Shown piece by piece: positions 9,668-19,821 of a stretch of DNA of 64,000 nucleotides. Origin of the DNA: an uncultured Pseudomonadota bacterium (GTDB lineage: Bacteria > Pseudomonadota > Alphaproteobacteria > Acetobacterales > Acetobacteraceae); contig CAVTQY010000002.1 of assembly GCA_963736975.1 (NCBI GenBank), positions 364,949 to 428,948 on the forward strand. Reading direction: 5' to 3'. The notes under the pieces are model-generated. The model was not told the DNA's origin and made no database searches. It was given only the letters and a program-made list of their open reading frames with translations. A program made the position numbers and the translations under genes. Numbering within the stretch: position 1 is the first letter of the stretch; the number at the start of each line of letters is the position of its first letter.

Positions 9668-9786
9668 CAACTCGCCGCGGCACGATGCATGGGGTTTATC
9701 GGAGGGAGGGGTGCGGGCCAATCCCCATTCGGGACATAGGCTATACCGCCCGGGCAGTGCTTTCCCTATTACCTTCGGAGGTTGCA

Positions 9787-10395
9787 ATGCCGGAACCCGA
9801 ACGCATCGATCGGCATCGCACGGCACTCATCGCGTACGACGTCTGTCGGCGTGCGCTGACGCCGTCGGATCCCGCTCGAAGATCTGCAATGCGCCCGCTG
9901 CTCGATGCGTGGGTGCGGATGATCGCGCTCGCACGGGCGGCTGGTGTGCCGGTGATCTACACGACGCCGGTCAGCCGCGCCGATGGCGCCGATGTCGTCA
10001 TGCTGCCGACCGATCTATCGGCGGAGACCGGTGTGCCGCCGCTGACGAACGCGATCGAGGGGACCGCCGAGGCCGGTTTCCCCGAGGAGATTGCGCCTCG
10101 GGTTGAGGATTACGTCTTTCTCAAGCGTCGGCCGAGTGCCTTCTATGGGACGGGCGTTGCCGAGCTACTGCAAATGCTGCGGCGCAACACCCTTATCATC
10201 GGCGGTGGCGCCACCAACCGTGGCGTCGAGACGAGTGTCCGCGAGGCTTTCAATCTCGACGTTGCGTGTGTCGTCGTGCGCGAGTGCTGCTGGGGCAGTG
10301 ACGCGGACGCTCATGCGTATAGTCTGGACAAGGCGATGAAGATGTACGCTCGCATCCGGCGGCTGGAGCAAGTCGCGGAGATGCTGGGGGAGTGA
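9787..10395 (+). CDS. Isochorismatase-family cysteine hydrolase
   Basis: ORF 9685..10395, ATG 9787 preceded by GGAGG. ...RTALIAYDVCRR..., VFLKRRPSAFYGTGVAELLQMLRRNTLIIGGGATNRGVETSVREAFNLDVACVVVRECC. Confidence 0.85.
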   Translation: MPEPERIDRHRTALIAYDVCRRALTPSDPARRSAMRPLLDAWVRMIALARAAGVPVIYTTPVSRADGADVVMLPTDLSAETGVPPLTNAIEGTAEAGFPEEIAPRVEDYVFLKRRPSAFYGTGVAELLQMLRRNTLIIGGGATNRGVETSVREAFNLDVACVVVRECCWGSDADAHAYSLDKAMKMYARIRRLEQVAEMLGE

Positions 10396-10566: not shown

Positions 10567-10828
10567 ATGCCGACGTTGAGCACGTTCTATGGTATCGGTG
10601 ATTCAGATGTTCTGGCAGGAACATCCGCCGCCGCACTTCCACGCCTTGTACGCGGAGCACGAGGCATTGATTGACATTCAGACGCTTGACGTCATCGAGG
10701 GAAGCCTGCCCCGCCGTACGCTTACTCTTGTGCGTGAGTGGGCGCGCGTACATCGTGCTGAACTGATGGAGGACTGGAATCTATGCCGGCAGAGGCAGCC
10801 GCCCAAGACGATCGAGCCGCTTCGGTAA
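10567..10828 (+). pseudogene. DUF4160-family gene interrupted by a +1 frameshift near nt 10597
   Basis: ATG 10567 encodes MPTLSTFYGI. After one extra G (~10597) the ORF-track frame (10589..10828) continues VIQMFWQEHPPPHFHALYAEHEALIDIQT... Joined, the sequence matches the canonical DUF4160 N-terminus (MPT.S.FYGI.I.M...EH.PPHFHA.Y.E). Confidence 0.6.
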
Positions 10829-11115
10829 CACCAACCATACGTCCGACTGCTCCGTGGCGGGTGCAGGAGGTGAAGGCGCTACCAGACGACCGCCTGTTCG
10901 TGCGGTTCATCGATGGGCTCAGGGGCATTGTCGATCTTTCCGCGCTCATTGCGTCGCCGAACGCGGGGGTATTCGCGCGCCTGCAGGACCGGAGCTTGTT
11001 CGAGCAGGTTCGGGTAGAAATGGGGGCCGTCGTCTGGCCCGGCGACCTGGATCTTGCCCCCGACGCGATGCACGCCGCGATCAAGAAACACGGGGAGTGG
11101 AGGATTGCTCCCTAG
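10783..11115 (+). CDS. DUF2442-family protein
   Basis: 110 aa. ...WRVQEVKALPDDRLFVRFIDGLRGIVDLSALI...GAVVWPGDLDLAPDAMH is the DUF2442 pattern. GGAGGA lies 9 nt upstream of the ATG. The gene overlaps the DUF4160 3' end by 46 nt. Confidence 0.65.
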   Translation: MPAEAAAQDDRAASVTPTIRPTAPWRVQEVKALPDDRLFVRFIDGLRGIVDLSALIASPNAGVFARLQDRSLFEQVRVEMGAVVWPGDLDLAPDAMHAAIKKHGEWRIAP

Positions 11116-11147
11116 TTAGCCGAGGTTGCGGCGCGGCCCCGTCATCT

Positions 11148-11350
11148 GGCAGCGCCGCCACCTATAGCGGTGTCGAGACGAGCGTGTGCGAGGCGTGCAA
11201 TCTCGACATTGCGTCTGTCGCCGTGAGCGATTTATGTTGCAGAGGCCACACGAACTACACCTACGGCCCCGACGAGGCGATGAAGACGCACGCGCGCATC
11301 CGGCGCCTGGACCAGGCCGCGGCGTGCTGGGGGAATGAGGGTGCTGCTGA
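11148..11350 (+). pseudogene. Diverged duplicate of the 3' end of the isochorismatase-family gene
   Basis: Nucleotides align by eye with 10201-10410. The translation ...GVETSVCEACNLDIASVAVSDLCC...DEAMKTHARIRRLDQAA compares with GVETSVREAFNLDVACVVVRECCW...DKAMKMYARIRRLEQVA. There is no upstream coding part. Confidence 0.7.
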
Positions 11351-11635
11351 TTGGTACAACGACTCGAGCCGCCAAGGTCGACCCCAAACGGTTCAATGCG
11401 CGCCGTCGGTTTTCGACCGTCCCCACCGTGATACACCATCAGCTCCGCCCGCGGTGCCAACGCGGCCATATCCGACCAGGACCATCGACATCGAAACTGT
11501 TGGACATTTGGGGATATCGGCCGAAAAATGTCGGTGCGTGCGGCCGCCGCGCGGCAATCAGCGGCCGCGCTTGACGGGCGCCGCGAATGTCGGCCCTGCC
11601 CGGCCGGCTGCTTCGAGAACGGCGCAGGAGGCGAT

Positions 11636-13290
11636 ATGGATTATCCTTACGACCTCGGCCCTTATTCCCGGACGGTGACCACGGCCTCGGCGGACGCCCA
11701 GCGCTGGTTCGACCGCGGCCTCAACTGGTGCTTCGGTTACCACCATGAGGAGGCGATCGCCTGCTTCCAGAAGGCGCTTGAGGCCGACCCGAACTGCGCC
11801 ATGGCGCACTGGGGCATCGGCTACGCGGCCGGGCCGAACTACAACTTCCCCTGGGAACTGATGGACCCCGCGGGTAAGGCGGTGGCACTCGCGCGCGCCC
11901 ACTCTGCCGCCTGCGCAGCCCTCGCGCTGGCCGGAGGTGCCACCGCGCCGGAACGGGCGCTGATCGGGGCGTTGACCACCCGCTATCCACAGCGCGACCC
12001 CATCGAAGACCAGTCGCCCTGGAACGACGCCTTCGCCGATGCCATGCGCCACGCACACCAAGCGTATCCAGACGACCTCGACTTACGCGCCATATTTGTT
12101 GAAGCGATCCTCAATCGTACGCCCTGGCTCATGTGGGACCTGCGTACCGGCGAGCCCGCGCCCGGCGCCGGCACGCTGGAAGCGCGCGAGGTGCTCGAGT
12201 GCGCCTTCCGCGATCTGCCCGGGGCGATGGACCACCCCGGTCTTCTGCACCTGCATGTGCACCTGATGGAAATGTCACCGCATCCGGAGGTTGCGTTGGT
12301 AACGGGTGACCGACTGCGCGAGATGAGCCCGGACATGGGCCACCTGGTTCACATGCCCACGCACATCGACATTCAGTGCGGCTACTATCGCGACGCGATG
12401 CACTGGAATCATAAAGCGATCGTTGCGGACCGCAAGTTCTATGACCTCGCCGGGCCGATGAATTTCTATTCGGGTACCGGATACATAATTACCATTTCGC
12501 CGCTTACGGGGCTATGTTCCTCGGCCAGTACGCGCCGGCGATCGCGGCCGTTGACGAGCTGATCGCGACCATGCCGGAAGCGTTTCTGCGCATTCCTTCA
12601 CCGCCCATGGCGGATTTTTTCGAAGGATACGTTTCCATCAGGCAGCACGTGCTGGTGCGCTTCGGCAAATGGCGCGAGATCATCGCGCAGGAGTTGCCGG
12701 CCGATCGCGAGCTGTTTTGCAACACCGTGGCGATGATGCACTACGCCAAGGGCGTCGCCCACGCCGCGCTGGGGGAGGTGCAAGCAGCGGAGGCGGAACA
12801 GGCGCTGTTCAGGGACGCCGCGAAACGCGTCCCGAAGTCGCGGCAAATCCACAACGTGTCCTGCGTGCAGCTTCTGGCTGTGGCCGAGGAGATGCTGGCG
12901 GGCGAGATCGCGTATCGGCGAGGCGAGCACGATGCGGCGTTCGCGCGTCTCCGCGCTGCCGTTTCGCTGGAGGATGATCTGCCGTACGACGAGCCGTGGG
13001 GGTGGATGCAGCCGGTCCGCCACGCGCTGGGTGCGCTGCTGCTGGAGCAGGGCCGCCCGGCGGAAGCCGAGGTGGTGTATCGCGAGGATCTTGGGCTTGG
13101 GGGCGCGTTGCCTCGGGCGCAGATCCACCCCGACAATCTGTGGGCTCTGCGCGGGCTGCTCGATTGCCTCGAGCGGCGGGGCGAGACGGCGGAGGCCGCA
13201 CTTATTCGCCAGCGGGTGAAGTTCGCGGCGGCGCGTGCAGATTTGCCGGTATGGGTGTCCTGTTTCTGTGCCGGCGGCATGGCGGCCTGA
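11636..13290 (+). pseudogene. TPR-like helical-repeat protein gene split by a -1 frameshift at ~12472-12475
   Basis: ORFs 11528..12562 (ATG 11636, GGAGG upstream) and 12514..13290 are two halves of one protein. The frame changes inside TCGGGTAC. Reading ...PMNFYS then, in the second frame, YRIHNYHFAAYGAMFLGQYAPAIAAVDE restores a continuous sequence. Confidence 0.65.
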
Positions 13291-13305
13291 GTTCGAGCCG
13301 GATTT

Positions 13306-13644
13306 TCAGATCGTAATGAAGCTCTCGAGCTTGGCGCGAACCTGCCGGGCCACTTCCGGGCTCACCGAACTACCAGCATAACGGATCGGCCTTGCCATTG
13401 TTCGATGCTGCGCACATGGCTGGTCAGAATTTCTCCCACGACCGGCAATCCGGGCGGCAGGACGACGCTGGTCGGAAATGGCCGTATGCGGGACGTAATC
13501 GGACACACCACCGAAAGCCCTGTATTCGCGCTGAACGCCGCGTCGGAGATGACCAGCGCTGGCCGTCGTCCGGCTTGCTCGCGTCCCTTCGTGGGGTCGA
13601 AATCGGTCCAGATCAGGTCCCCCGCCCGCTGGCATATAGCTCAT
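13306..13644 (-). pseudogene. mazF: MazF/PemK-type toxin gene whose core is out of frame (two opposite single-base indels)
   Basis: ATG 13644 overlaps the mazE stop (ATGA). Frame A encodes MSYMPAGG and the C-terminus ARPIRYAGSSVSPEVARQVRAKLESFITI. The canonical core DLIWTDFDPTKGREQAGRRPALVISDAAFSANTGLSVVCPITSRIRPFPTSVVLPPGLPVVGEILTSHVRSIEQW is readable only in another frame, between the C5 run at 13619-13623 and ~13392-13395. Confidence 0.7.
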
Positions 13645-13898
13645 TCGGGAACAATCTCGCGGCCAATATCCGGTCCCCAGTCGTAGGCTCCGGCATATTC
13701 GGCTCGCCAATCTTCGGGCGACTTACCGCGAAACAGCTCCGCGAGCGATATTCGCCTCTCGCTCGGGCGAATGACGACTGCCCCATCCCGCGCCTCGATA
13801 TCGACCCGTTCGCCATCGCGAAGCCTGACTGCATCGGCGATCTCCGCCGGCAGGCGCACCGCCAGGTTATTGCCCCATCTGCCGACCGTAACCTGCAT
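13641..13898 (-). CDS. mazE: AbrB/SpoVT-fold MazE-type antitoxin
   Basis: ORF 13641..13982, start at M29 (13898, GGAG upstream). MQVTVGRWGNNLAVRLPAEIADAVRLRDGERVDIEARDGAVVIRP. Confidence 0.75.
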   Translation of the reverse strand: MQVTVGRWGNNLAVRLPAEIADAVRLRDGERVDIEARDGAVVIRPSERRISLAELFRGKSPEDWRAEYAGAYDWGPDIGREIVPE

Positions 13899-13976
13899 CG
13901 AGCGCTCCAATGGATGGTCTGAGAATATCTGTGGCGCGGACGGCAACAGGCAAGGCCTACCCACCGGCACCCGCTT

Positions 13977-14191
13977 CCTCAAAACCCCCGCACCTGCTCA
14001 ATCGTCCGCGCCTTCAGCTCTGGCGGCTCCTTCCACGGAAACACCGTTACCTCCGCCCGCGGCGCCAATGCCGCCACATCGGTCGATGCCTGCAACGGAT
14101 GCGCTGGCGTATCGTCCGGCATTACCAGCACCGGCGTCTGGCAACCCCGCACGAACTCCCGCGACACGCCGCGGGGATTGATTGCACACAC
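13977..14191 (-). pseudogene. Diverged duplicate of the 3' end of the alpha/beta-hydrolase gene at 18456..19217
   Basis: ORF 13979..14191 translation matches 51 of 62 hand-aligned residues of the C-terminus of the intact hydrolase (VSREF.R.C.TP.LVMPDDTPAHPLQAS.DVAALAPRAEVT..PW..PPELKA.TIEQVR.F). Nucleotides 13977-14172 align with 18488-18683. Confidence 0.8.
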
Positions 14192-14276
14192 GAGCCGAGC
14201 GCCCGAAGCGCCACAGGATTATCTCGCAGGCATTGCGATCTGGTGTAGGATGCGCCGATCGGGGGGATAGAACTGC

Positions 14277-17200
14277 ATGGTTCAGTCCACGCTGCATCTC
14301 GAAGTTGCAGAGTTCCGCGATGCCGATCATTGGCGCTTTGTGCTGAAGGAGGCCGGCGGGGCGTTCCTGGCCGACCACGTCGCCGCGCTCGATCGGGCCG
14401 ATGCCCACTATGCCGCGCTAGTCGATCTGCCGGGCTATCTGCGCATGCATAGCGCACCGGATACCCGTGCGGCTGATGAGCAGCGGCTACTTGTTGAGGT
14501 AGGTAGTTGGATCGGCAAGCAAGTGTTGGGCCGGAGCCTTGCGGAGAAGCTGCTGTCGCGGGTGCCGCCGTCGGTGGTGGTGCGCGTGCTGGTCCCGCCG
14601 ACGGCAGAGCGGCTGCTCGCGTTGCCGCTCGAGATCGCACGGCTGGACGGCGGCGAGCCCCTGTCGGTGCAGGGCGTCAGCTTCGTGTTCGAGACGACCG
14701 GCACGGCGCCGCCACGAGCGGAGCCAGTCGGCGAGCGGCTGCGCATCCTGGCACTATTCAGCCTGCCGCCGGTCGGCAGCCCGCTGAATCTCCGCCGCGA
14801 GCGGCAGATGCTGCGTAATCTGGTACGCCGCTTGGCCGGCGCGGCCGGTCTTGGGGTGGAGTTGCACGTCCTGCAATACGGCGTGACGCGGAAGAGCCTG
14901 CAGGAGGTGCTGGAGCAGGGCGAGGGCTGGGACGTCATCCATTTCTCCGGCCATGGCCAGCCGGGCGCGCTGCTGCTGGAGCGCTCCGATGGCAAGCCGG
15001 ACGAGGTCTCCTCGATCGATCTCGCAAAGCTGCTCCGACAGGCGGGCGGACGGGTGAAACTGGTGACCTTGTCGGCCTGCCTGTCGGCAGCGGCCAGCGT
15101 CGCGCAGACGCTGTCCTGGCTTGGCTTCTCGGAGGGAGAGGCGGCGAAGCGCGACGCCTCGCCGGCTGTAACCACGGAAAAGCAGGACACCAAGGCGGCG
15201 CCGACGGTCGCGCGGGCGCTGACCGAAACGCTCGATTGCGCGGTACTGGCGATGCGCTACGCGGTCGAGGACGAGTTCGCGATGAACCTGGCGCGGGAAC
15301 TCTACGACCGGCTGTTCCGCCAGAAGCAGCCATTGCCGCAGGCGACAAGGCTGGCGCTTGCCAGTGTCGCTGGGGGCGAACGAGGAATCCCCGCCGTGGG
15401 TGCGCTCTCCGCCGCGGCGCCGGCGCTGTTCGGTCCACGTTCTGCGGACCTGATGCTCGTCCCGCCCAAGGGCACGGGGATCGACGCGGATACGTCGCTC
15501 GCTTTCGTGCCGAAGCTGCCGGAGCACTTTGTCGGCCGGGTGTCGGCGATGACGCGCGCGAGCGCGGCGCTCGCCACCGAGAGCAGCCGGAGCGGCGTTC
15601 TGTTCCACGGCATGGCGGGCGCCGGAAAGACCAGCTGTGCGGTCGAGCTCGTTTATCACCACGCCGCCGTTGGCCGGTTCCAGCGCTTTGTCTGGTTCTC
15701 GGCGCCGGAGCAGGGCAAGGACATCGCCCTGGCGCTGCGTGACTTCACACTGGCGCTGGAACGCCAGATCCCCGACCTGGCCATGCTGCAGGTCATCGAC
15801 CGCACCGACGCGTTGCGCGACTGGCTGCCACGGCTGGCTGAGGTGCTGGAGAACAACGCGCTCCTGATCGTGCTGGACAACCTGGAGAGCCTGCTGACCG
15901 AGGCGGGGGTATGGCGGGACGAGCGCTGGGGGTTGCTCGTCGAGGCCCTGCTGACCGCGGGCGGGCTGTCGCGCACGGTGCTGACCAGCCGCACCCGCCC
16001 TGCCGCGCTGCCGGAGTCGACCGAGGTAATCGCGGTGCACGCACTGCCGCGCGACGAGGCGCTGCTGTTGGTGCGCGAGCTGCGCAACCTGCGCCGGTTG
16101 CTCGACGGTGCGAAAGAGACCGGCGTGAGCCAGGAGGCGGGCCGGCAACTGGTGCGCCGGGTGCTGCGCCTGGTGCAAGGCCATCCCAAGCTGATCGAGC
16201 TGGCCGAGGCGCTGGCCGCGGCGCCGGCAAAACTGGCCGCGCAGCTCGACGAAGCCGACAAGGCGCAGACCGCGGGTGCCGGCGAACTCGACGCCTTCTT
16301 CGCCCAAGGCGAGACGCGACTCGGTCCGGCGGAATTTGTGGAGAGCCTGCATGGCTGGACCCGCGGCATCGCCGGCGCACTACCGGAGGCTGCACGCACC
16401 GGCTTCCATTTCCTTTGCGCCCTGGAGGAGGGTGACCGGCAGGGTTGGATCATCGCGGCCAACTGGTCGGACGTGTGGCAGCGCCTTGGCCGCCCGGCGC
16501 CGGCGCCGGATTTTCAAGCGGTGCTCGCCCCGCTCGTCGCGGCAGGGCTGGTCGACAAACAGGCGACCGCCGACCAGGCGGACGAGTTCGAAGTGCTGAT
16601 CCATCCTGGCATCGCCGAGGCCGGCCGCGCCGAGGCTGGCGCGGACCTGCAGGCCGCCGTCGATCACGAGCTCGCCGCGACGTGGAACACGCTGTTTCGG
16701 AACGCTTGGAAGGCGGAGGGCCGTGAGGCCTGGGCCGGCCCAATGATGGTGCGCGCCGGGCTGCACGGCTTCCCGTACTTCGCCCGCCTTGGGCACTGGG
16801 AGTTGGCTGCGGGAATGATGGACAGGGCCGTGCATCTGGACACATCGCCCGGTACGATCGCCGCAGTGCTGCCGCTGCTACAAAAGGTGGTCTCTGCCGC
16901 GACGGGCACCGAGCGGCAGAATGCGGAAAACCGCGGCATCCTCGCCAAGGTTCTCGAACTGGCCGGCCGGACCGGCGAGGCGGAAGGCCTGCTCCGCGAC
17001 CTCATCGCGCAAACTGCCGAGCGGGGTGAGTTTGGGGCCGCCTCTGTAAATTCAGGCACTTTGGCCAAACTGCTCCGGCGCACCGGTCGGGCGCGCGAAG
17101 CCTTACAAGTAATCGAGCGGCAGGCCGAATACACCAAGCAGGCAGGCTACGGGGCATGGACACAGTTAGCCGACGAGGTTCGGCGTCTGCAGATCCGCGT

Positions 17201-18071
17201 CGAGCTTGGCGAACATAGCGATGTGCTCGCGCGCGTGCTGGAGCTGCGCGGGCAGATGCACCAGTTGCCCGATCCGCCCGAGGCGAACGACCGGTCGGTG
17301 ACCACGTGGAATGTGCGTGAGACAATGTTGGATGTCGGGCGCAACGCTGCGGTGGAATCAGGTGAATGGCAGCCAGCCCTTGATCTCAACGCTGAGATTT
17401 TGCAGAGCAGCGTCAACCGCGGCGCCGGGGCTTTTGAACTTGCGCGTGGCCGGTTCAACGATTACGGGCCGCTACTGCGGCTGCAACGTTATGGTGAGGC
17501 CCGCAGCCTTTTGCAGCACTGCCGGGACGTGTTCGAGCAGGAGAACGCCGTGGCGGAGCTCGGGGCGGTGTTCTCTGGCCTTGCGGATCTAGAGGACGAG
17601 CTCGGCCGTAAAGAAGCGGCGGGGCGTTTCGAGCAAACGGCAATTCGCTACGAATATGCTGCGGGAAACCCCAGCAGTATCGCTATCAGCCACTTCAATC
17701 TCGCCAAATACCTGACCAAGGCGGATGGCGATTGGCGCGGCGCGCTCGGACATCGGCTGGCCGCGGCAATGATCAGATGCATCACCGGATCGGCGGGATT
17801 GGAGCAGGCGATCACGGCACTCGCCAGGGATCTTCGCAACGCCGGCGGCCAGGCGAGCGCGGCTCTGCCCGGCGATTTGGCCGCGCTGTATGCGGACGTG
17901 CAGCAAGTCGAAGGCGTGCGCTTCCACGAGTTGATGCAGCGACTGCAGCCGGACGAGGCGGCACTGGAACAGCTCCTGCAAGACATTATCGCCGGTGCGA
18001 AGAAACGGGCCGACGCAAATGACGGTGCATCGCCTGATCGCGGGCCACAGCAGGGGGAGGGGTCACAATGA
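14277..18071 (+). CDS. CHAT (caspase-like) protease - STAND P-loop NTPase - TPR-like repeat protein, 1264 aa
   Basis: The CHAT dyad context is WDVIHFSGHG (His226, nt 14952-14954) and KLVTLSACLS (Cys268, nt 15078-15080). Walker A is VLFHGMAGAGKTS (nt 15609-15632) and Walker B-like is NALLIVLDNLESLL (Asp534). The C-terminal ~450 aa are helical repeats. It is a single uninterrupted ORF with coding-like G/C third positions. Confidence 0.85.
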   Translation: MVQSTLHLEVAEFRDADHWRFVLKEAGGAFLADHVAALDRADAHYAALVDLPGYLRMHSAPDTRAADEQRLLVEVGSWIGKQVLGRSLAEKLLSRVPPSVVVRVLVPPTAERLLALPLEIARLDGGEPLSVQGVSFVFETTGTAPPRAEPVGERLRILALFSLPPVGSPLNLRRERQMLRNLVRRLAGAAGLGVELHVLQYGVTRKSLQEVLEQGEGWDVIHFSGHGQPGALLLERSDGKPDEVSSIDLAKLLRQAGGRVKLVTLSACLSAAASVAQTLSWLGFSEGEAAKRDASPAVTTEKQDTKAAPTVARALTETLDCAVLAMRYAVEDEFAMNLARELYDRLFRQKQPLPQATRLALASVAGGERGIPAVGALSAAAPALFGPRSADLMLVPPKGTGIDADTSLAFVPKLPEHFVGRVSAMTRASAALATESSRSGVLFHGMAGAGKTSCAVELVYHHAAVGRFQRFVWFSAPEQGKDIALALRDFTLALERQIPDLAMLQVIDRTDALRDWLPRLAEVLENNALLIVLDNLESLLTEAGVWRDERWGLLVEALLTAGGLSRTVLTSRTRPAALPESTEVIAVHALPRDEALLLVRELRNLRRLLDGAKETGVSQEAGRQLVRRVLRLVQGHPKLIELAEALAAAPAKLAAQLDEADKAQTAGAGELDAFFAQGETRLGPAEFVESLHGWTRGIAGALPEAARTGFHFLCALEEGDRQGWIIAANWSDVWQRLGRPAPAPDFQAVLAPLVAAGLVDKQATADQADEFEVLIHPGIAEAGRAEAGADLQAAVDHELAATWNTLFRNAWKAEGREAWAGPMMVRAGLHGFPYFARLGHWELAAGMMDRAVHLDTSPGTIAAVLPLLQKVVSAATGTERQNAENRGILAKVLELAGRTGEAEGLLRDLIAQTAERGEFGAASVNSGTLAKLLRRTGRAREALQVIERQAEYTKQAGYGAWTQLADEVRRLQIRVELGEHSDVLARVLELRGQMHQLPDPPEANDRSVTTWNVRETMLDVGRNAAVESGEWQPALDLNAEILQSSVNRGAGAFELARGRFNDYGPLLRLQRYGEARSLLQHCRDVFEQENAVAELGAVFSGLADLEDELGRKEAAGRFEQTAIRYEYAAGNPSSIAISHFNLAKYLTKADGDWRGALGHRLAAAMIRCITGSAGLEQAITALARDLRNAGGQASAALPGDLAALYADVQQVEGVRFHELMQRLQPDEAALEQLLQDIIAGAKKRADANDGASPDRGPQQGEGSQ

Positions 18072-18328
18072 ACCAACCCAACAGCAGCGAGGAGGTCGCA
18101 CGCAGGTCGGCGGCGCGGCTTGTCGATATCGATCCGGGATTACCGGATCAGGTTGAACAGGCGCTCGCGGAAGATCCGCTGTCCCGGCCAGCAGACCGCA
18201 TACTCGACCCGATTTCGCTGGGCGCGCTCATCGCCAGCATCGCCTCGCTGGGCTGGACCATATATCACGACATCAAGAAGGACCGCGGCACGGCCGGGCT
18301 CGATCGGGCGGGAAGACTCGGCGCCTGA
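18068..18328 (+). CDS. Small ORF translationally coupled to the CHAT-STAND gene (hypothetical, one hydrophobic helix)
   Basis: The ATG overlaps the upstream stop (ATGA at 18068-18071). The 86-aa product has an acidic N-half and one uncharged 19-residue stretch, PISLGALIASIASLGWTIY. Third-position G/C is high. A further open, coding-like stretch in another frame runs to 18450. Confidence 0.45.
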   Translation: MNQPNSSEEVARRSAARLVDIDPGLPDQVEQALAEDPLSRPADRILDPISLGALIASIASLGWTIYHDIKKDRGTAGLDRAGRLGA

Positions 18329-18455
18329 CCGAGCAGCTACAGGAATCGGATCTGGAGACCGGACCAGTTCCAACTGATCTTTCGCCAGAGCGGCACGCCC
18401 GGATGATCAGCGTCATTGCTGCGGAGATCGTTGGTTCCGACCCGGTCTAAAGCGC

Positions 18456-19217
18456 TTACCGGGCAACGGCTCTCACCGGCAGCTGCACCCTCAGAAACTC
18501 CCGCACCTGCTCGATCGTCTTGGCCTTCAACTCCGGCGGCTTGGTCCACGGATAGGCCGTCACCTCTGCGCGCGGCGCCAACGCCGCCACGTCCATCGAT
18601 GCCTGCAATGGATGCGCCGGGGTATCATCCGGCATCACCAGCATCGGTGTCTTGCAAGACCGCGCAAACTCCCGCGATACGCTGTAAACAAAATCGGGTC
18701 GTGCGCGGTAAAGATTGTGCAGATAGGCCTCGATCGTTACCATCGCAACATCTGGCCGTCGCGCCAGCAGTTCCGGCGCCCACACATCCCGGCCGGACCG
18801 GTACATCACGTCGGGATCGTCATCCCGATGCCCCACCGTCTGGCACAGCACGCCGGCCACCACGCGATCCGGCGCTCGCTCCATCAGCTTCAGCGCAAAG
18901 CAACCGCCGATGCAGTACCCCATGAAGAAGAACTGCCGGATGCCCAGGTGGTCCATCAGCCCGAGCTGATCATCGGTGAACGCGCCCCACGGGTCGTCAA
19001 CAGCGACAGGCCCCGTGGACTCGCCGCCGTTCGCGTTGCGCTGATCCATCGTGATGCAGCGGAAGTCGTCCTTGAAGACTTCCATCGCATTGAACACGGC
19101 GGTCGGCCAATGGCTGACGCCGGAGTTCAGGCCGCCGCCGGGAGTGACAAGCAGCGGGAAGCCGCTGCCGGTCTCCTCATAGCGGATGCGGACGTCGCCC
19201 TTTTCGTAGAATGGCAT
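18456..19217 (-). CDS. Alpha/beta-fold hydrolase
   Basis: 253 aa. MPFYEKGDVRIRYEETGSGFPLLVTPGGGLNS..., nucleophile-elbow-like FFMGYCIGGCFALK, and C-terminus ...PMLVMPDDTPAHP. Confidence 0.85.
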   Translation of the reverse strand: MPFYEKGDVRIRYEETGSGFPLLVTPGGGLNSGVSHWPTAVFNAMEVFKDDFRCITMDQRNANGGESTGPVAVDDPWGAFTDDQLGLMDHLGIRQFFFMGYCIGGCFALKLMERAPDRVVAGVLCQTVGHRDDDPDVMYRSGRDVWAPELLARRPDVAMVTIEAYLHNLYRARPDFVYSVSREFARSCKTPMLVMPDDTPAHPLQASMDVAALAPRAEVTAYPWTKPPELKAKTIEQVREFLRVQLPVRAVAR

Positions 19218-19304
19218 GGTGTATTTCCCAGGCTGCGGGTTGTGCGTTCTTTGTCATGGCTGGGCTCGGCCCGGCCGTCCACGTTTTCCTTCATGCGGGC
19301 AAGA

Positions 19305-19342
19305 AAGACGTGGATGGCCGGCACGAGGCCGGCCATGACGGT
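19305..19342. repeat. REP-type module left of the GIY-YIG gene
   Basis: AAGACGTGGATGGCCGGCACGAGGCCGGCCATGACGGT. An inverted partner CCGGCCGTCCACGT lies at 19271-19284, and the same motif recurs in reverse (TCCACGTCTT) at 19383-19392. Confidence 0.75.
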
Positions 19343-19422
19343 AAGTGCCGGCGTCCGCCTTCGCCGGGTTGAGGGCCAGCAGTCCACGTCTTCTTCACCA
19401 GTCCCGGCCATTGGGTGTTCGC

Positions 19423-19659
19423 ATGGGCGGATGGGTTTACATCATGACGAACCAGCGCAGTGGAACGCTGTATGTCGGGGTTACGAATGACCTGGTTCGT
19501 CGGGTTTGGGAGCATCGGCAGGGAATCGGAAGCAATTTTGTTCGTCGATATGCCCTGAACAGCTTGGTCTACTTCGAACATCATGAAGACGTAGGCACAG
19601 CAATTCAGCGAGAGACCAGTCTGAAGCGGTGGCCTCGTGCTTGGAAAGTCGCCTCTTGA
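19423..19659 (+). CDS. Small GIY-YIG nuclease-family protein (COG2827 type); conserved C-terminal tail is out of frame to 19709
   Basis: ORF 19345..19659, start at M27. MGGWVYIMTNQRSGTLYVGVTNDLVRRVWEHRQG...LVYFEHHEDVGTAIQRETSLKRWPRAWK. The expected tail QNPEWRDLYPSLLG* is encoded in another frame (19656-19709), implying an indel near 19650-19656. Confidence 0.7.
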   Translation: MGGWVYIMTNQRSGTLYVGVTNDLVRRVWEHRQGIGSNFVRRYALNSLVYFEHHEDVGTAIQRETSLKRWPRAWKVAS

Positions 19660-19740
19660 CTGCTCAGAACCCGGAGTGGCGGGACTTGTACCCGTCGCTG
19701 CTCGGTTGAAGTTCGATTTTGGTGTCATGTGTGCGGTTAA

Positions 19741-19821
19741 AAGACGTGGATGGCCGGGCCAAACCCGGCCATCCACGATAGGGGGCCGGCCACGACGATG
19801 AGGGCGGCCGGCCATGACGGT
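19741..19821. repeat. REP-type module right of the GIY-YIG gene
   Basis: AAGACGTGGATGGCCGGG-ccaaa-CCCGGCCATCCAC forms a 13-bp perfect stem (19746-19776) and is followed by GCGGCCGGCCATGACGGT (19804-19821). It is in the same orientation and has the same end motifs as 19305-19342. Confidence 0.75.

Follow-up and report, generated by a model that had tools for sequence, protein, structure and literature searches.

Proteins that join a CHAT protease domain, an NB-ARC NTPase and C-terminal repeats were reportedly recognised by comparative genomics some two decades ago, in the work of Koonin and Aravind in 2002 and of Leipe et al. in 2004. Avs/STAND sensors fused to proteases cleave the adjoining small proteins EACC1 and Pepco, which thereby become pore formers, and other neighbours of such sensors, a metallo-β-lactamase (MBL) nuclease and an α/β-hydrolase, are zymogens (PMC12642450); EACC1 is paired with KrAvs12 (Evans et al. 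2025, PMC12642450). The transmembrane helix of EACC1 has a patch of small residues, and the protein was first proposed to be a membrane anchor or sensor (Kaur et al. 2020, PMC7159879). Fungal NLR-like proteins with CHAT or S8 proteases cleave neighbouring gasdermins (PMC8851545). Caspase-fused Apaf-1-like STANDs occur in bacteria, most defence STAND sensors are TPR-like, and in a STAND phylogeny of 589 clades the defence and non-defence clades are interspersed (PMC13581612). Here we describe a two-gene cassette in the window, i.e. the whole analysed stretch of 64,000 nucleotides on contig CAVTQY010000002.1 of an uncultured Acetobacteraceae bacterium. It encodes a large CHAT-STAND-repeat protein and, overlapping its stop codon, a small partner protein. 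Our leading reading, which we hold tentatively and put a little short of probable, is by analogy that of an NLR/Avs-type conflict module, likely acting by anti-phage abortive infection, in which the CHAT protease would cleave the partner to release a membrane-active fragment.

The large protein and its coupled partner

The large gene is one open reading frame (ORF) of 1264 codons, just as the earlier note on this DNA had read it, and encodes an N-terminal β/α region with the CHAT protease, followed by an NB-ARC-type STAND NTPase and a helical-repeat C-terminus (Table 1). The domain calls of that note are supported by Pfam for CHAT and NB-ARC, by invariant residues and by a fold search. In the Pfam search CHAT scores 39.6 bits over residues 88-364 (curated cut-off 24) and NB-ARC 28.0 bits over residues 427-612 (cut-off 23.5), while the NACHT and nSTAND models stay below threshold. 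The candidate catalytic dyad, His226 within WDVIHFSGHG and Cys268 within KLVTLSACLS, had been placed correctly, as had Lys451 in the Walker A motif GMAGAGKT and the Walker B motif LLIVLDNLE, which contains Asp534. All four residues are invariant in an alignment of 30 full-length relatives (44-78% identity), and the dyad also in a second alignment of 35 homologues. Invariant among the 30 are furthermore G445, G448 and G450 of Walker A, N535 of Walker B, the sensor-1-like T570 and R572 (TSR), and Q634, G635, H636 and P637 of the 'GxP' motif QGHPKL, which is the most conserved search pattern.

An AlphaFold2 model of residues 1-430 reaches a predicted local distance difference test (pLDDT) of 84.9 and a predicted TM-score (pTM) of 0.87. 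Compared with the PDB by Foldseek, it matches SAVED-CHAT (8tl0), Csx29/TPR-CHAT (7y84, 8eey, 8d9f), the CHAT-containing anti-sigma factor DdvA (8rot) and separases with E-values of 1e-9 to 1e-6 and a probability of 1.00. The nearest solved folds are Csx29 and SAVED-CHAT (E 1e-9 to 1e-8, TM-score about 0.5); caspases-3, -7 and -9 match more weakly (E about 1e-4). In the model the CHAT domain has a caspase/separase-like fold, and proteolysis by the large protein is predicted. The C-terminal repeats are less sharply defined. All Pfam TPR models fall under their cut-offs (TPR_12 at 21.8 versus 30.1 bits), and the TPR assignment of the earlier note draws its support instead from the family profile, which matches designed PPR/TPR solenoids in the PDB over residues about 870-960 with an E-value of about 1e-8. 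By sequence, generic PPR/TPR repeats were the only solved relatives of the large protein in this PDB profile search. The NTPase (0.60) and the CHAT domain (0.53) are the best conserved parts; the repeats come next (0.43-0.46), and conservation drops furthest in the last 44 residues (0.18), whose coding region holds the ribosome-binding site of the partner gene, GGGGGAGGGG.

The ATGA overlap between the two genes is as the earlier note described it, and this ribosome-binding site lies upstream of it. The small ORF proved to be something else than it had seemed. As sequenced it has 86 codons (18068-18328), with the remainder of the gene in the +1 frame (18316-18449), and the 86-residue product is a truncated reading of a conserved gene of 127 codons. 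Its close homologues are 121-135 residues long, and in a tblastn alignment with P0123, a partner homologue of 81% identity, residues 1-83 match one frame (18068-18316) and residues 82-127 the next (18310-18447). Addition of one A to GGGAAG yields a 127-residue protein (...AGKTRRLTEQLQ...VIAAEIVGSDPV) that stops at TAA (18447-18449) and has a C-terminus of the family type, VIAAEIVGSDPV. The switch of frame and the restored C-terminus together indicate a deletion of 1 nt in the window copy that reflects either inactivation in the recent past or a mistake of the assembly. The GC content of the partner ORF by codon position is high/low/high (0.69/0.51/0.75), a coding-like pattern. Unless the deletion is a sequencing error, the frameshift may have crippled the module in this genome; the window copy is probably impaired, and the system looks partly decayed. 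A partner homologue in an alphaproteobacterial metagenome-assembled genome (MAG; L004:13721-14164) fits the family profile over positions 3-92 and then passes into Arg-rich, non-coding-looking sequence, and may be another frameshifted copy.

With a profile built from 12 close partners we retrieved 467 representatives of 50%-identity clusters (E <= 1e-3), of which 171 remain at E <= 1e-10; the majority have 115-130 residues. The hallmarks of the family are, in order, ARxAAxRLA, LPxxVExxL, a loop that varies in length and sequence and ends in a conserved D-P, DPISLGxLIVSxAxLxWTIYxDLKKD, and ...RDRIIxVVxxE. All members with a name are called 'hypothetical protein', many of cultured Streptomyces, Nonomuraea and Actinomadura among them. 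For 45 diverse members no Pfam or NCBIfam family was found at E <= 0.1, the family has no PADLOC model, and the window, L004 and actinobacterial forms have no Pfam/NCBIfam match at E <= 1. Sub-threshold echoes come from single-transmembrane proteins, i.e. the holin Pam3 gp28, PspB and Saf_2TM. The earlier note had expected a product with a single hydrophobic helix. AlphaFold2 predicts instead a soluble bundle of five helices (residues 3-17, 25-35, 51-71, 80-93 and 107-124; pLDDT 84.2, pTM 0.79), in which the hydrophobic segment is the buried central helix 51-71 (pLDDT 91-92) and the sole low-confidence loop spans residues 36-50 (pLDDT < 50 at residues 43-46). The best 19-residue Kyte-Doolittle window averages 1.66 over 45 family members. 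Bak and globin, considered as folds of the partner, were rejected since their TM-scores of 0.2-0.3 in Foldseek are meaningless, and a PDB profile search returned no solved relative of the partner. The ratio of nonsynonymous to synonymous substitution rates (dN/dS) is 0.30 for the large gene against L078, the closest large-protein relative with an intact copy, and 0.20-0.37 for the partner against its relatives; by this measure of sequence divergence both genes are under purifying selection.

The two genes are linked well beyond the window. In the closest relatives, the loci L078 and L079, the small gene and the stop codon of its large neighbour likewise overlap, and in the window and its relatives the overlap comes with a strong ribosome-binding site. 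A search started from the small protein gave 12 metagenome loci, and in all ten with upstream sequence a large gene ends directly upstream, its product 42-76% identical to the window protein. Four further loci, from Streptomyces (L093, L094), Actinomadura (L095) and a MAG (L096, with a fragmented large gene), have the partner directly 3' of a CHAT...TPR gene. The intact large proteins of the Streptomyces and Actinomadura loci have 1248-1276 residues and are 26-27% identical to that of the window over CHAT and P-loop, with the motifs GPGGTGKT, LLxVWDNFE and DGHPLSM kept, while the partners at these distant loci are 34-51% identical to P0123. From these two ranges of identity the partner emerges as a constant component of a broader CHAT-STAND-TPR superfamily. 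In 18 actinobacterial loci a partner variant of 150-170 residues lies 3' of the large gene, usually with an ATGA or GTGA overlap, and in L057 large protein and variant form a single in-frame polypeptide, with the variant after the C-terminal tail region. Profile-profile comparison joins the variant core to the 120-residue family (84% probability, E 8e-6, 52 columns); the linked core includes two helices and the loop and reaches into the first part of the hydrophobic helix.

From the side of the large gene the linkage is looser, with either partner type present in only 19 of 76 close homologue loci (about 25%). The expectation that a small ORF is conserved downstream therefore holds for all ten metagenome partners with upstream sequence and for a minority of the large genes, and a partner universal to the large-gene family is rejected. 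Where it is missing, the large gene is followed by a different family of about 150 residues (L028, L054, L077), a subtilase (L027, L066) or a tandem paralogue (L015), and elsewhere by nothing obvious. The first of these, of about 145-165 residues with the motif ...EFDPLL.AI.A.A.G...KGWHL...RIWNGERD... (L028:13571-14071, L054:13757-14200, L077 about 13567-14000), is found in Chloroflexi, Desulfobacterales and an Actinomycetota MAG, and may be an alternative partner; the subtilases are subtilisin-like S8 proteases encoded directly 3' of the large gene. A homotypic EAD-like adaptor (Kaur et al. 2020/2021) shared by partner and large protein was rejected (hhalign probability 0.1%). Scans for sigma-70 promoters found nothing, which is uninformative in a GC-rich genome.

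The protein database holds 757 homologues of the large protein, many of them full length at about 1220-1290 residues, and 313 stretches encode relatives in one-genome-per-species contigs. Their hosts are Alpha-, Beta- and Gammaproteobacteria, many Actinomycetota, Acidobacteriota, Chloroflexota and Desulfobacterales, as well as archaeal MAGs of Methanothrix and Bathyarchaeia. Across bacterial phyla and archaea the family has a patchy spread that is compatible with horizontal transfer. Dactylosporangium aurantiacum alone has three copies of the large gene (L038, L041, L058). Tandem or multi-copy paralogues were also observed in Geodermatophilus (L035, L039, L060) and at L015, L022 and L029; they recall NLR gene clusters, and the partner gene sits 3' of one paralogue per array. 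Among 518 flanking ORFs the only recurrent neighbours of the large gene are its own paralogues, in tandem in seven loci, and the small partner; no other conserved operon partner was found in this set, nor a fixed housekeeping neighbourhood, which the earlier note had taken as a sign that would speak against its immune reading. A serine resolvase directly follows the cassette in L078 (L078:4451-5041) and a phage-type integrase lies near the gene pair in L096 (L096:1-57), a hint that the cassette travels on mobile DNA.

A possible executioner and the competing explanations

We propose that the large protein would act as a cytoplasmic tripartite receptor, with a TPR-like C-terminal solenoid that binds the trigger. 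Binding would free the NB-ARC NTPase for nucleotide exchange and oligomerisation, and the oligomers would juxtapose the N-terminal CHAT domains such that the His226/Cys268 dyad is switched on by proximity. The translationally coupled partner of 127 residues would be the dedicated substrate, in its resting state a soluble five-helix bundle concealing the hydrophobic helix. A cut in the exposed loop (residues about 36-50) would then strip the two N-terminal shielding helices, and the freed fragment with helix 51-71 would insert into the membrane or disrupt it and halt the cell. The sequence of sensor, switch and protease output, already suggested by the earlier note, matches published protease-fused Avs/STAND proteins by analogy (PMC12642450, PMC13581612). 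The tight linkage across lineages, the natural fusion in L057 and the precedent of EACC1 and Pepco make the partner as cleaved executioner the best-supported reading. The patchy family, the multi-copy or tandem arrays, the variable neighbourhoods and the toxin-antitoxin remnants beside the window locus are consistent with a conflict system.

Several observations weigh against such an executioner. With about three quarters of the close homologues devoid of a partner, most lineages must use the protease on other substrates or for other outputs. The partner is predicted to be soluble and its hydropathy is borderline for a transmembrane helix; its model has no significant Foldseek match in the PDB, to a pore former or otherwise (best E 0.69), and the conserved D-P before the helix resembles a helix cap more than a scissile bond. 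The sensor region is not hypervariable. Most of the 148 immediate neighbours of the homologues are metabolic, and the defence matches among them are scattered, in raw counts with no background comparison: the PADLOC-positive minority comprises mREase_IV (type IV restriction), SoFic, AriA, dGTPase, mads and PDC. No relatives of the large gene were found in viral contigs by an IMG/VR search, on which ground a phage-borne origin was rejected, and no PADLOC v2 system or Avs model matched, in a library that predates the Avs6+ definitions. Finally, the window copy of the partner is itself frameshifted.

A bolder version of the executioner reading, of which we are rather doubtful, makes the partner the first member of a new class of all-α, membrane-inserting toxins licensed by proteolysis. 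Here an NLR-fused CHAT protease would open a bundle with a hidden hydrophobic helix, comparable in concept to Bcl-2/Bax or the pore domains of colicins. On this bolder view bacteria would possess a pathway from an NLR via a caspase-like protease to a non-gasdermin executioner, widespread in Streptomyces, other Actinomycetota and Alphaproteobacteria, unnamed and outside Pfam, NCBIfam and PADLOC. If the executioner reading is right, a family of about 470 clusters would join the short list of small effectors activated by immune proteases, with an all-helical fold unlike gasdermin, EACC1 and Pepco. Culturable Streptomyces and Actinomadura would then offer a tractable NLR-like receptor with a built-in caspase-like protease, useful for comparing cell-death pathways of prokaryotes and eukaryotes. 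Since the window copy is probably impaired, the intact homologues of these genera are the better experimental entry, and the window serves as a pointer to the family. Defence-finder tools now miss these loci; a profile of the partner would flag them.

The main rival casts the partner as a regulator that would bind the CHAT domain or the C-terminal tail, such as a securin-like pseudo-substrate inhibitor, a chaperone or a safety catch, and has the activated protease kill or signal through host or phage substrates in the manner of promiscuous bacterial caspase-like effectors. It is a serious alternative because so many homologues have no partner; these keep the invariant dyad, so that the protease evidently works alone. 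The compact soluble bundle of the AlphaFold2 model fits a regulator, separase and Csx29, both structural neighbours of the CHAT domain, are controlled by bound partner proteins, and the fusion in L057 suits an intramolecular regulator as well as a substrate. The strongest conservation in the partner, however, lies in the hydrophobic helix and not in a surface or loop, and where small partners of such proteases have been tested, namely EACC1 and Pepco, they are effectors (PMC12642450). That the partner is more conserved than the large protein across distant pairs also suits a constant effector, without being decisive. Overall we regard a regulatory role as unlikely.

Less likely still are two further explanations. 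In the first, which we consider improbable, the pair would be non-immune, i.e. a STAND-regulated proteolytic switch for stress, development or cell fate, comparable to STAND regulators outside defence and to CHAT proteins like the anti-sigma factor DdvA or HetF. The fairly conserved sensor region, the mostly metabolic neighbours, the negative PADLOC and viral searches, the abundance of the family in developmentally complex Actinomycetota and the interspersed defence and non-defence STAND clades (PMC13581612) would all agree with such a switch. It is harder to reconcile with the lack of a conserved operon partner besides the small protein or of a fixed housekeeping neighbourhood, with a patchy spread into archaea that is consistent with horizontal transfer, with tandem paralogue arrays and loci beside a resolvase or integrase, and with a window locus in an accessory patch with toxin-antitoxin remnants, where frameshift decay is typical of dispensable genes. 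The second, the weakest, makes the partner a single-pass membrane protein that anchors the receptor or senses membrane perturbation to activate the protease; a hydrophobic helix rich in small residues with a basic DLKKDR flank, a mean hydropathy just over the classic threshold of 1.6, the weak matches to single-transmembrane families and the similar small-residue patch of EACC1 (PMC7159879) speak for it, but we hold it very unlikely, as AlphaFold2 confidently buries the helix, the hydrophobic stretch of the 150-170-residue actinobacterial relatives is only 12-14 residues and too short for a bilayer, the partner has no signal peptide or second transmembrane segment, the positive-inside rule would require a charged N-terminus of 50 residues to cross the membrane, and EACC1 itself later proved to be a cleaved pore former and not a sensor (PMC12642450).

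Genomic setting of the cassette

Table 1. Positions in the window of the two genes, their domains and motifs, and neighbouring features
Feature	Position	Strand	Basis
Large gene, 1264 residues	14277-18071	+	Single ORF; homology to 757 database proteins
CHAT domain (caspase-like, clan CD), residues 88-364	14538-15368	+	Pfam PF12770
Candidate His226	14952-14954	+	Invariant in homologue alignments
Candidate Cys268	15078-15080	+	Invariant in homologue alignments
NB-ARC/STAND NTPase core, residues 427-612	15555-16112	+	Pfam NB-ARC
Walker A (Lys451)	15609-15632	+	30-homologue alignment
Walker B (Asp534)	15864-15887	+	30-homologue alignment
QGHPKL, 'GxP' motif of the ARC/winged-helix module, residues 634-639	16176-16193	+	30-homologue alignment
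C-terminal α-helical repeats (TPR-like), residues about 760-1220, presumed sensor	16554-17936	+	PDB profile matches
Poorly conserved C-terminal tail, residues 1221-1264	17937-18068	+	Conservation 0.18
Ribosome-binding site of the partner gene	18053-18062	+	
ATGA, partner start overlapping large-gene stop	18068-18071	+	
Small partner gene, 127 residues if repaired	18068-18449	+	Homologues of 121-135 residues; tblastn frame switch
Partner residues 36-50 (EDPLSRPADRILDPI), exposed low-confidence loop, putative cleavage region	18173-18217	+	AlphaFold2 model
Partner residues 48-66 (PISLGALIASIASLGWTIY), conserved hydrophobic helix rich in small residues	18209-18265	+	Family alignment
Frameshift site	18310-18315	+	GGGAAG where relatives imply GGGAAAG; 1-nt deletion near 18314
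MazE antitoxin gene	13641-13982	-	Within 13309-13982
Degenerate copy of the α/β-hydrolase 3' end (context only)	13982-14169	-	Direct repeat
Convergent α/β-hydrolase gene (context only)	18456-19217	-	Pfam Abhydrolase_1
MmeI-like type IIG restriction-modification methyltransferase ORF, 570 residues	33686-35395	+	PADLOC REase_MTase_IIG, E 1e-169

From left to right the surroundings of the cassette consist of an isochorismatase gene (9685-10395), a DUF4160/DUF2442 pair (10589-11115), a degenerate copy of the isochorismatase 3' end (11148-11336), a frameshifted TPR gene, a MazF-like ORF, MazE and the degenerate hydrolase 3' copy. To its right follow the α/β-hydrolase, a GIY-YIG ORF, GST, RadA and PolA, the last two intact. 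Homology of L078 and L079 with the window spans the cassette only (14258-18444). L080, a metagenome contig, is 90.7% identical over 14230-19228 and has cassette and hydrolase in common with the window; it lacks window positions 11133-14229 (3.1 kb with the TPR gene, MazEF and the hydrolase fragment) and diverges beyond the hydrolase. In L079, 80% identical, an HTH_3 gene stands between the TPR gene and the cassette. What lies upstream of the cassette thus varies between close relatives, which, taken with the cassette-only homology, marks the locus as an accessory patchwork.

The earlier note had seen the cassette as bracketed by an insertion footprint. The direct repeat is real: the left copy is 82% identical at the nucleotide level to 18495-18682, and residues 180-241 of the hydrolase align with it at 82% in tblastn. 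Its origin as a target-site duplication from insertion of the cassette is unsupported, since L080 has the cassette without the left copy. A similar arrangement was observed further left, where the 3' end of the isochorismatase gene (10201-10378) recurs at 11148-11336 beyond the DUF4160/DUF2442 pair (52% amino acid and 77-85% nucleotide identity); in both cases an old and incomplete second copy of a neighbour's 3' end flanks a small module. Although α/β-hydrolases of this kind are known effectors, the convergent hydrolase was rejected as a protease-activated effector of the pair: it lies beside it in L080 and L081 only and is absent in L078, L083, L089 and L090.

The TPR gene (11636-13287), encoding 551 residues, is split into overlapping ORFs of 344 and 258 residues, with the frame switching at about 12460-12475; in L079 it is intact at 85% nucleotide identity. 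As the second frameshifted gene within 6 kb it points either to a decaying accessory patch or to indel errors of the assembly. Following MazE on the minus strand, a MazF/PemK-like frame (GDLIWTDFDPTKGREQAGRRPALVIS...; MazE and this frame together at 13309-13982) has no ATG, GTG or TTG before about residue 45; it is a pseudogene without a start codon or else begins at a non-canonical one. Among the genes nearby, the MmeI-like ORF alone is clearly of a defence type; it lies about 15 kb from the cassette, has the motifs VDPACGTG and NPPF and an odd N-terminus, and may be truncated or frameshifted. Together with the adjoining toxin-antitoxin remnants this does not amount to a dense defence island. 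The GIY-YIG ORF (19345-19659) is flanked by repeats of 28-33 nt (AAAGACGTGGATGGCCGG...GGCCGGCCAT) in direct and inverted orientation (19304-19336 and 19740-19777), and may with them form a small mobile or repeat-associated element.

Comparison with known systems

The tripartite architecture and the sensor-protease logic of the large protein are already in the literature. New is the large unnamed partner family with its strict coupling to the receptor gene, which may have been described earlier under another name. Like the earlier note, PADLOC v2 assigned the locus to no named defence system; its only matches to the large protein are SAVED_CHAT (E 2e-4, weak) and mad8 (E 0.033, weaker). Effector, STAND NTPase and presumed TPR-like sensor are arranged as in the Avs and other NLR-like STAND receptors (Gao et al. 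2022; PMC13581612; PMC12642450), and with the protease-fused members the pair shares an adjacent small protein as likely proteolytic target. The NTPase differs from that of Avs in being NB-ARC/AP-ATPase-like.

In bacterial Apaf-1/AP-ATPase-caspase architectures a caspase-superfamily protease is likewise fused to an NB-ARC/AP-ATPase with C-terminal repeats. The ones nearest to Apaf-1, which are cyanobacterial, carry WD40 propellers, in contrast to the TPR-like repeats, CHAT-type protease and dedicated small partner found here. Csx29/Csx30 of type III-E ('Craspase') and SAVED-CHAT of type III-B offer the analogy of a sensor-gated CHAT protease that cuts a dedicated neighbour. Activation would proceed through a STAND NTPase instead of RNA-bound Cas7-11 or cyclic oligoadenylate. 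The TPR region of the large protein is C-terminal, with the NTPase between it and CHAT, whereas that of Csx29 is N-terminal to CHAT, and the partner is unrelated to Csx30. No cas-like neighbours were seen among the scanned window genes, and there is no Pfam match to CATASP or CATRA.

The EACC1-caspase systems come closer. There, too, a STAND sensor with an N-terminal protease of the caspase superfamily is encoded beside a small non-enzymatic protein (about 120 residues) whose one conserved hydrophobic helix has many small residues. The sensors diverge while the small protein stays constant, and the systems are abundant in Actinomycetota and sporadic in Proteobacteria. The partner gene, however, lies 3' of the protease gene, usually with a start/stop overlap, whereas the EACC1 gene lies 5'; the partner is predicted to be all-α, in contrast to the α+β EACC1 with its autoinhibitory β-sheet; and the large protein scores 16.1 bits against a cut-off of 140 for NCBIfam NF047832 (caspase_w_EACC1). 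In the gasdermin-protease systems, i.e. bacterial gasdermins (bGSDM) and fungal HET-Q1 with its CHAT/S8 HET-Q2-like NLRs (PMC8851545), the protease gene also adjoins that of a latent membrane protein activated by cleavage, and the fungal proteases are sometimes CHAT domains fused to NOD and TPR, WD or ANK repeats (PMC8851545). Unlike a gasdermin, the partner has 127 residues, is predicted to be all-helical and has no gasdermin match by profile or fold. Its identification as EACC1, CATASP, Trypco/Pepco or gasdermin was rejected, as none of these Pfam/NCBIfam profiles matches. By analogy, then, the pair most resembles the EACC1-caspase/Avs and gasdermin-protease modules, yet by the marks that define their members it falls outside both.

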